Of a DNA stretch of 46,273 nt, positions 41,655-43,139 are shown piece after piece. The notes below the pieces were generated by a model. That model searched no databases and was not told the DNA's origin. It saw only the letters and a program-made list of their open reading frames with translations. How positions within the stretch are numbered: position 1 is the first letter of the stretch; each line of letters starts with the position of its first letter. The position numbers and the translations under genes are program-made. The DNA comes from Escherichia phage PhiR29_1: sequence record PV340556.1. One strand, given 5' to 3'.

Positions 41655-43139
41655 TTATTGTATTTCTGCTTCAGAATTTCCTGGGCAGTATATATTTTCT
41701 ATTTTTTGTGGAGTGATCAGGTGATGTACAATTGCTTTATCTACACATAAATTAACTCCGGTGAGAGCTAATGTATGCCCATCACCATTTATTGTTAGTA
41801 ACGGGCTGGAAAATTTCTCTGCCATCTTACGGGCATTAATCCAGGGCGTTGTTGGGTCGTATTTGTGTGCTACAAACAGTAAACCAGAGGGCAGAACAGT
41901 ATTTTTCAGGCGAGTTTTGTTCAGGTCGCTATGTATTGGCCATAATTCACAAAAATCAGGTGAATCGGAACGTCCATTGTCAAAGTTAATAGCCGGGAAG
42001 GCATTCGCAAGAGCGTCTTTTCGGGATTTTCGCTCTTCTGGTGTTAATTGCTCATCCCCCTGATCTACACAAAGGATTACCCCCGAAGCATCACTTGACT
42101 CTTCTGAGGCTATCGGAGCACTGAGCGCAGTTTCAATTTCATTACTGACAATCCCCTGAGAGAACTGGCGTATGGCAGTTGCAAGGGTTGGCCATGATGA
42201 ACGCCATAGCAGAAGGTCTGTTGTTAATGATATGAGTTCATCTGAAGATATATTTTCTCCCTTACTGTCTAATAAAGGTTTGTGATGTAATTTTAATAAT
42301 AGCTCATGGAACTGAGTTATTGCCTTATCTCTGTCTGAAGAAAGCGGGCAACTTTTTGTACGCGCACACCAGGATGCAAAGCGATCAAACGTTTCCTGAT
42401 AACTCTGTGCCTGTTTGAGTTGCCATGTGAAGTTGTCCTCCAGGTCATCGATATCGACGACTCCATCAAGAACGATAGATCTTACGTTGTAGGGAAAACG
42501 TTCTGCATATAAGGCTGCAATTTGAGTTCCATACGAATACGCCACGGCTGTCAGTTGTTTATCCCCCAAGGCTTGCCTAATACGATCAATATCGTATACA
42601 GCCTCGTTAGAGCCGATATGGCGAATGACTTCGGCTCCGGTATTATGGATACAGGCATTAATTTTATTTAATACTTGTTGCTTTTCGGTTATGTTTTCCT
42701 GAGTCTCTGTATCTGATTGCCGGCAGTTTATTGTCGGAGTGGACTGTCCGACGCCTCGAGGATCAAATCCAATAATATCCCATGACTCACGAAGATTTGT
42801 GACTGGCCAGTCAAAGTTAATATAAGGATTTATGCCTGGTAACCCGGGACCACCACTTATTATCAGGATACTTCCTTTATGCTTGCTTTTTGCCGGCAAT
42901 TTTGTCAACGCTAGTTTGACTTGTGATTTTTTTTCATAAGAAGCATCTCCGCCTGTGTCTGTATATTTTAATGGAACAGACAAATAACCACATAGTAAGT
43001 CAGGAGACGGTTTTTCCTCACCAAACCAGTGGTTGAATTGACTGGCCATACAGGATTGCCACTGTATCTGCTGGGCAGATACGGTTACTGGTAGAAGTAA
43101 CGTTAAAACAACTTTGAAATGAGTAATTATTTTTCGCAT
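41655..43139 (-). CDS. Secreted alpha/beta-hydrolase, S33 (prolyl/tripeptidyl aminopeptidase)-like
   Basis: 494 aa; N-terminal signal peptide (LLLPVTVSAQQ); GFDPRGVG oxyanion-region motif and nucleophile elbow AYSYGT (G-x-S-x-G). Confidence 0.7.
   Translation of the reverse strand: MRKIITHFKVVLTLLLPVTVSAQQIQWQSCMASQFNHWFGEEKPSPDLLCGYLSVPLKYTDTGGDASYEKKSQVKLALTKLPAKSKHKGSILIISGGPGLPGINPYINFDWPVTNLRESWDIIGFDPRGVGQSTPTINCRQSDTETQENITEKQQVLNKINACIHNTGAEVIRHIGSNEAVYDIDRIRQALGDKQLTAVAYSYGTQIAALYAERFPYNVRSIVLDGVVDIDDLEDNFTWQLKQAQSYQETFDRFASWCARTKSCPLSSDRDKAITQFHELLLKLHHKPLLDSKGENISSDELISLTTDLLLWRSSWPTLATAIRQFSQGIVSNEIETALSAPIASEESSDASGVILCVDQGDEQLTPEERKSRKDALANAFPAINFDNGRSDSPDFCELWPIHSDLNKTRLKNTVLPSGLLFVAHKYDPTTPWINARKMAEKFSSPLLTINGDGHTLALTGVNLCVDKAIVHHLITPQKIENIYCPGNSEAEIQ

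Follow-up and report, generated by a model that had tools for sequence, protein, structure and literature searches.

A predicted exported Hip1/TAP-like serine hydrolase encoded beside omptins on lambdoid prophages and IncF plasmids of Escherichia coli

The window analysed here is a stretch of 46,273 nucleotides from Escherichia phage PhiR29_1 (sequence record PV340556.1), in which an open reading frame (ORF) of 494 codons with an ATG start (41655..43139, minus strand) lies next to the outer-membrane protease gene ompT. We consider it probable, at roughly 60%, that the product of this ORF is a periplasmic serine hydrolase of the Hip1/tripeptidyl aminopeptidase (TAP) type, exported via Sec and stabilised by disulfides, presumably a peptidase with esterase activity, which serves as lysogenic-conversion cargo and forms a mobile module with an omptin. 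The identical coding sequence (CDS) is known from strain ECOR29 as RefSeq WP_001226371.1, 'alpha/beta hydrolase'. The ratio of nonsynonymous to synonymous substitutions (dN/dS), together with highly significant Pfam, PDB and fold matches, confirmed that the ORF is real and not a chance reading frame.

Two Pfam models matched the hydrolase well above their cut-offs, namely Abhydrolase_1 (PF00561; E = 3.3e-33, 115.8 bits against 25.8) and, over the C-terminal residues 386-479, the 'TAP-like' Abhydrolase_4 (PF08386; 2.5e-14, 53.7 bits against 21). The top sequence match in the PDB was Hip1 (Rv2224c) of Mycobacterium tuberculosis (E = 1e-50, residues 21-475), followed by TnmK1, TnmK2 and then prolyl aminopeptidases. 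An AlphaFold2 model based on 85 homologues (predicted local distance difference test 91.3, predicted template modelling (TM) score 0.91) showed a beta-sheet core broken by a helical block at about residues 230-380. When this model was compared with the PDB by Foldseek, the first six matches were all Hip1 (E about 1e-30 to 5e-34, TM 0.76-0.82), and next came TnmK1 and TnmK2, the plant alpha/beta hydrolase DM3 (TM about 0.5) and the smaller S33 prolyl aminopeptidases (TM about 0.35). The S33-type alpha/beta-hydrolase family proposed in the initial annotation is thus upheld by Pfam and by the PDB and Foldseek matches to Hip1, with prolyl aminopeptidases as the next peptidase group. Its prolyl/tripeptidyl aminopeptidase label was right in the second half, given the TAP-like domain and Hip1 as closest relative, and wrong in the first: the prolyl aminopeptidase equivalog (NCBIfam TIGR01249) was rejected with 35.6 bits against a cut-off of 259.75, the match covering only residues 167-262 around the nucleophile. 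On sequence grounds, 'tripeptidyl/Hip1-like' is therefore the accurate label, and we confidently place the predicted protein among the exported serine hydrolases of the Hip1/TAP clade. PHROGs assigned it to family 20134, 'unknown function'.

Absence of the catalytic triad had been set beforehand as the refutation of this assignment, and the triad proved to be present. The nucleophile Ser202 (codon 42534..42536, in A-Y-S-Y-G), the acid Asp428 (41856..41858, in Y-D-P-T-T-P) and His455 (41775..41777, in G-D-G-H-T), all encoded on the minus strand, align with Ser228, Asp463 and His490 of Hip1, respectively, while Thr431, near the catalytic Asp, aligns with Thr466. The three residues were invariant in an alignment of 16 sequences; among the 85 homologues, which reached down to 27% identity, Asp428 was invariant and Ser202 and His455 were at least 90% conserved. 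The GGPG (residues 96-99) and DPRGVG motifs were mostly invariant in the same set, the remaining positions being at least 90% conserved, and all ten cysteines were conserved to at least 90%. As for the motifs listed in the initial annotation, GFDPRGVG was indeed found at residues 124-131, whereas a strict G-x-S-x-G was not, the actual nucleophile elbow being A200-Y-S202-Y-G204. Across homologues the first position of the elbow is Ala, Ser or Gly, and small-x-S-x-G is an accepted variant of this element. Because the triad is intact and the oxyanion motif present, and because the gene is under purifying selection (see below), we are confident that the hydrolase would be catalytically active.

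The N-terminus carries a predicted Sec signal peptide (codons 1-22, 43074..43139, minus strand) with the sequence MRKIITHFKVVLTLLLPVTVSA and cleavage after VSA. Judged by sequence features, MRKIITHFKVVLTLLLPVTVSA|QQ comprises a basic n-region and V-S-A at positions -3 to -1, and the most hydrophobic 11-mer of the whole hydrolase spans residues 10-20; neither a lipobox cysteine nor a twin arginine was found in the N-terminus. The VSA(Q/R)(Q/R) junction was retained among the omptin-linked variants compared. The signal peptide noted earlier is thus of the Sec type, and the accompanying description of the enzyme as 'secreted' applies only in the sense of a predicted export across the inner membrane, from which a periplasmic location would follow.

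Full-length alignment with Hip1 ('carboxylesterase A'; PDB 5UGQ, 7SFM) gave 26-28% identity, and the fold comparison TM 0.78-0.82. The two proteins share an alpha/beta core with a helical lid, the Ser/Asp/His triad with a Thr near the Asp, at least nine of the ten hydrolase cysteines at aligned positions, and export to the cell envelope, which for the phage hydrolase is predicted from the signal peptide. In Hip1 the triad consists of S228, D463 and H490, and 11 cysteines with five predicted disulfides are present; the enzyme cleaves azocasein, GroEL2, Ala-Pro-Ala-pNA (pNA, p-nitroanilide) and Gly-Pro-Leu-pNA, shows esterase activity on p-nitrophenyl butyrate, and is 30-38% identical to tripeptidyl aminopeptidases of Streptomyces (PMC4022732). 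There are also differences. Hip1 is chromosomal, actinobacterial and bound to the cell envelope, whereas the phage hydrolase is encoded by phages and plasmids in E. coli and is predicted to be soluble in the periplasm; the nucleophile elbow is G-x-S-x-G in the former and A-x-S-x-G in the latter; and for GroEL2, the Hip1 substrate, there is no evident equivalent in the periplasm of E. coli. Tap (TPP A), SlpD and SlpE of Streptomyces lividans have the TAP-like domain and the Abhydrolase_1 core in common with the hydrolase, above Pfam thresholds, a likeness established via Pfam and not by direct alignment. SlpD and SlpE are lipoproteins, unlike the phage hydrolase, which has no lipobox. Prolyl aminopeptidases (proline iminopeptidases, for example Serratia 1QTR, and TIGR01249) belong to the same superfamily and resemble the hydrolase near the nucleophile and in the GGPG oxyanion motif, but they are cytoplasmic proteins of about 310 amino acids that cover only the core of the model (Foldseek TM 0.35, query-normalised).

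The second main element of our reading is the association with omptins. In the window, ompT (43326..44279, minus strand) was identified from its ORF and profile matches (Pfam Omptin, E = 2.8e-130; NCBIfam score 707.8 bits, cut-off 537), and the hydrolase ORF follows it on the same strand after 186 bp, so that the adjacency reported in the initial annotation stands. We compared five diverged variants of the hydrolase from phage and IncF plasmids, and in all five an omptin gene was located directly upstream in the same orientation. Taking the prophage pair of the window as reference (100% for both proteins), an IncF plasmid variant located next to iroN (L003) showed 92.4% identity in the omptin and 95.5% in the hydrolase; a plasmid-like metagenomic contig (L092), 79.7% and 81.9%; and an IncF haemolysin plasmid encoding OmpP (L004), 70.5% and 77.3%. 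A further contig (L099) carried a hydrolase of 78% identity. Divergence of the two proteins thus runs in parallel (92.4/79.7/70.5% for the omptin against 95.5/81.9/77.3% for the hydrolase). With dN/dS of 0.11-0.15 at a synonymous divergence (dS) of 0.85-1.06 for the hydrolase, and 0.05-0.17 for the omptin, both genes of the pair are under purifying selection. Among plasmid records, 156 contained an intact ompP-hydrolase pair and 16 the other plasmid-borne pair. Of the 1230 genomes whose hydrolase gene is near-complete, at least 1168 have kept the block consisting of methyltransferase, tfa remnant, hydrolase and ompT. The pairing with ompT is therefore conserved and not incidental, a point that is new relative to the initial annotation. 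Such conserved adjacency suggests, short of proof, that the two proteins work together.

How the two genes might be expressed was examined in the omptin-hydrolase spacer, which is 186 nt long in the window (43140..43325, minus strand) and putatively promoter-bearing. A G+C-rich hairpin follows the omptin stop codon in all five variants (43278-43306 in the window, minus strand, CCCCGGTGG...CCCCGGGG), and is itself followed by a poor U-tract; as a terminator it would be leaky, and transcription of the omptin gene presumably continues in part into the hydrolase gene. The spacer measures about 186 nt in three variants, with a conserved block before the hydrolase start, and about 92 nt in the other two, which possess a strong AGGAGA ribosome-binding site. 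The block common to the three long spacers (window 43140-43277, L003 6816-7000, L092 5812-6000) reads AACGTGTA..TACCGCAACACA..CAATATATTCAAATTTTATCTTTAT, lies just upstream of the hydrolase start and could serve as the binding site of a regulator or as an unusual promoter. A PhoP half-site, TGTTTA, was seen by eye just after the hairpin and was not counted as evidence. At the other end of the gene, a 14-bp hairpin with a U-rich tail (41599..41634, minus strand; z = -5.1) lies 21 nt past the hydrolase stop codon and is likely the intrinsic terminator of the hydrolase transcript. In a microarray time course of E. coli O157:H7 Sakai, the homologue ECs1662 fell by log2 2.53 between 4.6 and 5 h, on entry into stationary phase, and ompT by log2 2.72 between 4.6 and 5.5 h, both genes being placed in QT cluster 1 (PMC2241611). 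As ECs1662 mRNA was measured there, the homologue is transcribed during (exponential) growth in an uninduced O157:H7 lysogen.

The whole window represents one complete lambdoid prophage integrated at the tRNA-Arg gene argU. It is bounded by 27-nt att repeats, attL at 1-27 and the same 27 nt in the attR core at 46197..46223 (plus strand), which is the 3' end of argU; the integrase gene occupies 41-1204, and the gene order is lambda-like (cI/cro, replication, Q, lysis, head, tail, J, lom, stf, tfa). The hydrolase gene is part of the accessory region that separates the tail-fibre genes from attR. Its position inside the att repeats and its presence in ten deposited phage genomes (99.4-100% protein identity) bear out the earlier view of it as prophage cargo. 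These carriers are PhiR29_2, Turner, 2G7b, ev243, PhiR26_1, PhiR30_1 and PhiR49_1, some deposited in duplicate. With regard to the features of a moron, the gene was found in the strand opposite to the late operon, with its own predicted terminator and with mRNA in the uninduced Sakai lysogen. It resembles the lambdoid morons bor, lom, ompT and nmpC in accessory-region position, predicted export of the product, a G+C content below that of the phage, expression in the lysogen and a likely terminator of its own, and differs from them in encoding an enzyme whose family is not known from earlier discussions of phage cargo. We are confident that it is lysogenic-conversion cargo of temperate phages which is likewise carried by plasmids.

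In K-12 MG1655 the same site is occupied by the decayed prophage DLP12, with the order tfaD-ybcY'-tfaX-appY-ompT-(prophage end)-envY. Pairwise alignment with the window showed near-identity through the tfaX remnant, an end of homology at about 41350-41400 and its resumption at about 43275, at the ompT terminator hairpin. From this break it can be deduced that a hydrolase-only cassette of about 1.9 kb (approximately 41400..43275; 40% G+C against 51% for the whole window) stands in place of an appY-only cassette of about 1.5 kb. Gene order and alignments thus agree with the position given for appY of DLP12 in the initial annotation, the slot between the tfaX remnant and the ompT terminator; appY encodes an unrelated AraC-type regulator.

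Combining these observations, a model of the module can be proposed in which an omptin gene, a leaky hairpin and the hydrolase gene would move as a unit between phages and IncF plasmids. On the surface of the cell, the omptin would cut cationic peptides or proteins, and those fragments that cross the outer membrane would then be trimmed by the hydrolase in the periplasm. Such sequential proteolysis is the biological role that we favour, although the idea draws only on the conserved linkage, on how seldom the hydrolase occurs away from an omptin and on the predicted compartments; we regard it as tentative and, on balance, rather unlikely. The stronger version, that omptin and hydrolase constitute a dedicated mobile two-step envelope-protease system against host cationic antimicrobial peptides or proteins, with a first cut by the omptin and destruction by the hydrolase of whatever fragments reach the periplasm, is a little more doubtful still. 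As for the activity, a peptidase is the likelier one because the nearest characterised relatives are peptidases, and by analogy the enzyme would most probably be a peptidase with added esterase activity, like Hip1. Peptidase activity, co-transcription and cooperation with the omptin are thus all things that we infer from the comparisons above.

Several points weigh against the reading of the hydrolase as a periplasmic peptidase working with omptins. In the searchable literature we found neither a functional study of this hydrolase nor any enzymatic, localisation or phenotype data for it. Relatives at about 45-54% identity, located on Salmonella and Serratia plasmids, in Budvicia, Providencia and Pseudomonas, and on one further contig, had no omptin nearby, and tblastn of the 6-kb flanks of 80 loci from a genome-collection scan (77 from Actinobacteria and three gammaproteobacterial) revealed an omptin in none. 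The pairing is therefore restricted to a single Escherichia-centred clade, and common ancestry with tight linkage could account for it. A scan of the omptin-hydrolase spacer for sigma-70-like promoters gave nothing convincing, with overall counts no better than in shuffled sequences, and the joint clustering of ECs1662 and ompT is no specific sign of co-regulation, since QT cluster 1 is the largest of all (1078 ORFs). The family itself is catalytically promiscuous, Hip1 having been described first as a carboxylesterase, and the next structural neighbours, TnmK1 and TnmK2, belong to a biosynthetic pathway and are not peptidases. Finally, K-12 has ompT and no hydrolase gene. The OmpT of K-12 is active, and more than half of the ompT-positive genomes are devoid of the hydrolase; from this it follows that the hydrolase is not required for omptin function.

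The points concerning activity would also suit a different exported enzyme, a carboxylesterase, lipase or lactonase whose substrates would be envelope lipids, host lipids or small esters and not peptides; the omptin pairing would then be lipid-related or meaningless. An alpha/beta-hydrolase triad cannot tell esters from amides, the hydrolysis of p-nitrophenyl butyrate by Hip1 is consistent with such an activity, as is the lack of peptidase function in TnmK1 and TnmK2, the second-closest solved structures, and some homologues were deposited under the names 'putative lactone hydrolase' or 'pimeloyl-ACP methyl ester carboxylesterase'. These names are automatic, however, with no experiment behind them; the closest characterised relative, Hip1, is a proven protease, S33 prolyl and other aminopeptidases come next among neighbours of the peptidase type, by sequence as well as by fold, and the TAP-like C-terminal domain was defined on a tripeptidyl aminopeptidase. 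We consider a pure esterase unlikely.

The conserved linkage could alternatively mean that the hydrolase is a dedicated maturation or regulatory factor of the adjoining omptin, with processing or degradation of the latter as examples. Strict linkage in the five variants, possibly on a shared transcript, and the scarcity of hydrolase genes without an adjacent omptin, seen in the block kept in the great majority of carriers, would fit such a role, but ompT was present in 3095 genomes against 1254 for the hydrolase and, as noted for K-12, OmpT is active without it, which makes this explanation very improbable. No better placed is a function as a phage-defence or superinfection-exclusion factor of the prophage. 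Prophage cargo regions often house defence genes, and the hydrolase matched, over its full length, the PADLOC model PDLC01094 ('C3a206, TAP-like protein', E = 5e-55). C3a206, however, is a candidate cluster of three members located beside type III-D CRISPR loci in Nocardiopsis, reported without functional test (PMC6546367); the PADLOC match merely restates family membership. Moreover, the hydrolase is predicted to be exported, it is not accompanied by a partner defence gene, and plasmids too carry it beside omptins. An anti-phage defence system called by PADLOC was rejected accordingly, C3a206 being the sole match and its partner genes being absent. Lastly, although tight physical linkage alone could carry a neutral gene, a functionless passenger hitch-hiking with ompT is hardly credible and is contradicted by dN/dS of 0.11-0.15 at dS of about 0.9, an ORF intact in 1230 of 1254 genomes, conservation of triad, cysteines and signal peptide, and the detection of mRNA.

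We thus retain the exported Hip1/TAP-type hydrolase of an omptin module as the favoured reading, and its distribution shows how common such a module would be. Among 5426 complete E. coli genomes, the hydrolase gene was present in 1254, of which 1212 carried it at 99% identity or more and 1230 over at least 80% of the gene length. With ompT detected in 3095 genomes, about 40% of the ompT-positive genomes have the hydrolase behind ompT; the K-12 appY cassette was found there less often (837 genomes). The hydrolase gene is 99.7% identical in DNA to the O157:H7 copies. In Sakai, ECs1662 (annotated as 'hydrolase') adjoins ECs1663 (ompT) at the end of the lambda-like prophage Sp8 near minE, which is a different chromosomal site. 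In O157:H7 strain FSIS11705876 and in Sakai Sp8 (L006/L095), ISEc8 is inserted between the tfa remnant and the hydrolase gene, leaving the hydrolase-ompT pair intact; at the same loci the GNAT acetyltransferase gene is truncated by IS1203/IS629 and a catalase/ferritin-like cluster is inserted after tfa. A tblastn search of plasmids returned 279 records, with variants at about 95% and about 79% identity on E. coli IncF plasmids. At least 156 ompP plasmids carried the hydrolase, many of them from cattle and sheep samples. As for the more distant homologues, that of Budvicia diplopodorum (L098 1341-6455; 53% identity) is chromosomal and lies two genes downstream of an EptA-type phosphoethanolamine transferase, with a gene for a Fic protein in between; transferases of this type are determinants of cationic-peptide resistance, and the proximity could be a coincidence. 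Identity with arlB of the plasmid arlABC peptide-resistance island was considered and rejected, as arlB is unrelated.

Omptins of the OmpT family have been studied heavily for their contribution to antimicrobial-peptide resistance and virulence in enterohaemorrhagic (EHEC), uropathogenic (UPEC), avian pathogenic and adherent-invasive E. coli. Their genomic context has been described without recognising the hydrolase, and genome records refer to it as 'hydrolase' or 'hypothetical'. In UPEC, for example, appY was reported 249 bp downstream of ompT in one isolate and 'ymcE' 186 bp downstream in another (PMC6854850). The latter distance is exactly the hydrolase spacing, so the name 'ymcE' is probably a mislabel. 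Z1931, which has been reported from culture supernatants of EHEC, is probably ompT and not the hydrolase. A genome-wide association study ties ompP to cattle hosts (PMC10088187); since ompP is usually followed by the hydrolase gene, this association would extend to the pair. More generally, given the occurrence of the hydrolase behind ompT in about 40% of ompT-positive genomes, O157:H7 included, and on ompP plasmids, phenotypes and host associations credited to omptins may belong partly to the pair. If the two-step system were real, the pair and not ompT alone would confer peptide resistance or host adaptation in EHEC O157:H7, in O55:H7 and in bacteria with cattle-associated ompP plasmids. Should the hydrolase have no envelope role, the finding would shrink to a better annotation of an ordinary accessory gene. 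The conserved omptin-hydrolase module appears to have been undescribed before; as an observation on gene neighbourhoods it does not amount to a system of a new kind, and the protein is an uncharacterised addition to a known enzyme family. What emerges is a predicted envelope hydrolase, unstudied and widely distributed among E. coli, EHEC included, whose clear link to a known virulence protease can be tested, and the gene offers a tractable E. coli model for the Hip1 family, a tuberculosis drug target.

Further features of the prophage concern the surroundings of the pair. The left border of the cassette is formed by a tfaX-like remnant of a tail-fibre assembly gene (41167..41472, plus strand), next to which an intact class I S-adenosylmethionine-dependent methyltransferase gene of the ybcY type (40442..41110, minus strand) constitutes neighbouring cargo; it is a pseudogene in K-12. 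This gene is bracketed by the two copies of a 121-bp direct repeat with 90% identity (40222-40342 and 41271-41391), which correspond to the 3' ends of the gene for tail-fibre assembly and of the tfaX-like remnant; the arrangement resembles a scar left when a cassette was inserted via recombination between tfa copies. Upstream of ompT, the window contains an extra 1.7 kb relative to K-12 (44360-46050), with cargo genes for an XRE-type helix-turn-helix/cupin regulator (44760-45362, plus strand) and a GNAT acetyltransferase (45387-45944, minus strand), both absent from K-12. Homology to K-12 ends some 110 nt ahead of the ompT start, so that the two sequences have different distal ompT promoters; differences in ompT expression between EHEC and enteropathogenic E. 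coli have been attributed to differences in the distal promoter (PMC6854850).

Additional envelope cargo was noted in the same prophage, namely an intact OmpD/NmpC-type porin gene (12327-13424, minus strand), disrupted by IS5 in K-12, and genes for Bor (15215-15508, minus strand) and Lom (about 36245-36844, plus strand). Five exported or outer-membrane conversion proteins (porin, Bor, Lom, OmpT and the predicted exported hydrolase) are thus encoded by this one prophage. A literature search yielded no paper describing the PhiR phages. The genome of Escherichia phage PhiR29_2 (host E. coli C; 46,180 bp) and the window are collinear and agree at 99.74% identity, except for the C-terminal part of the tail-tip protein J (35717-36157), which failed to align. 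J is represented by two CDSs in the phage record, and the discrepancy may reflect a difference in the host-range region or a frameshift in the deposited PhiR29_2 sequence. Finally, the ECOR29 chromosome past nfrAB (L001 34546-43216) encodes a type VI Vgr protein, a DcrB-related protein, a 1599-amino-acid 'restriction endonuclease fold toxin' and immunity-like genes, adjoining ISEc1.

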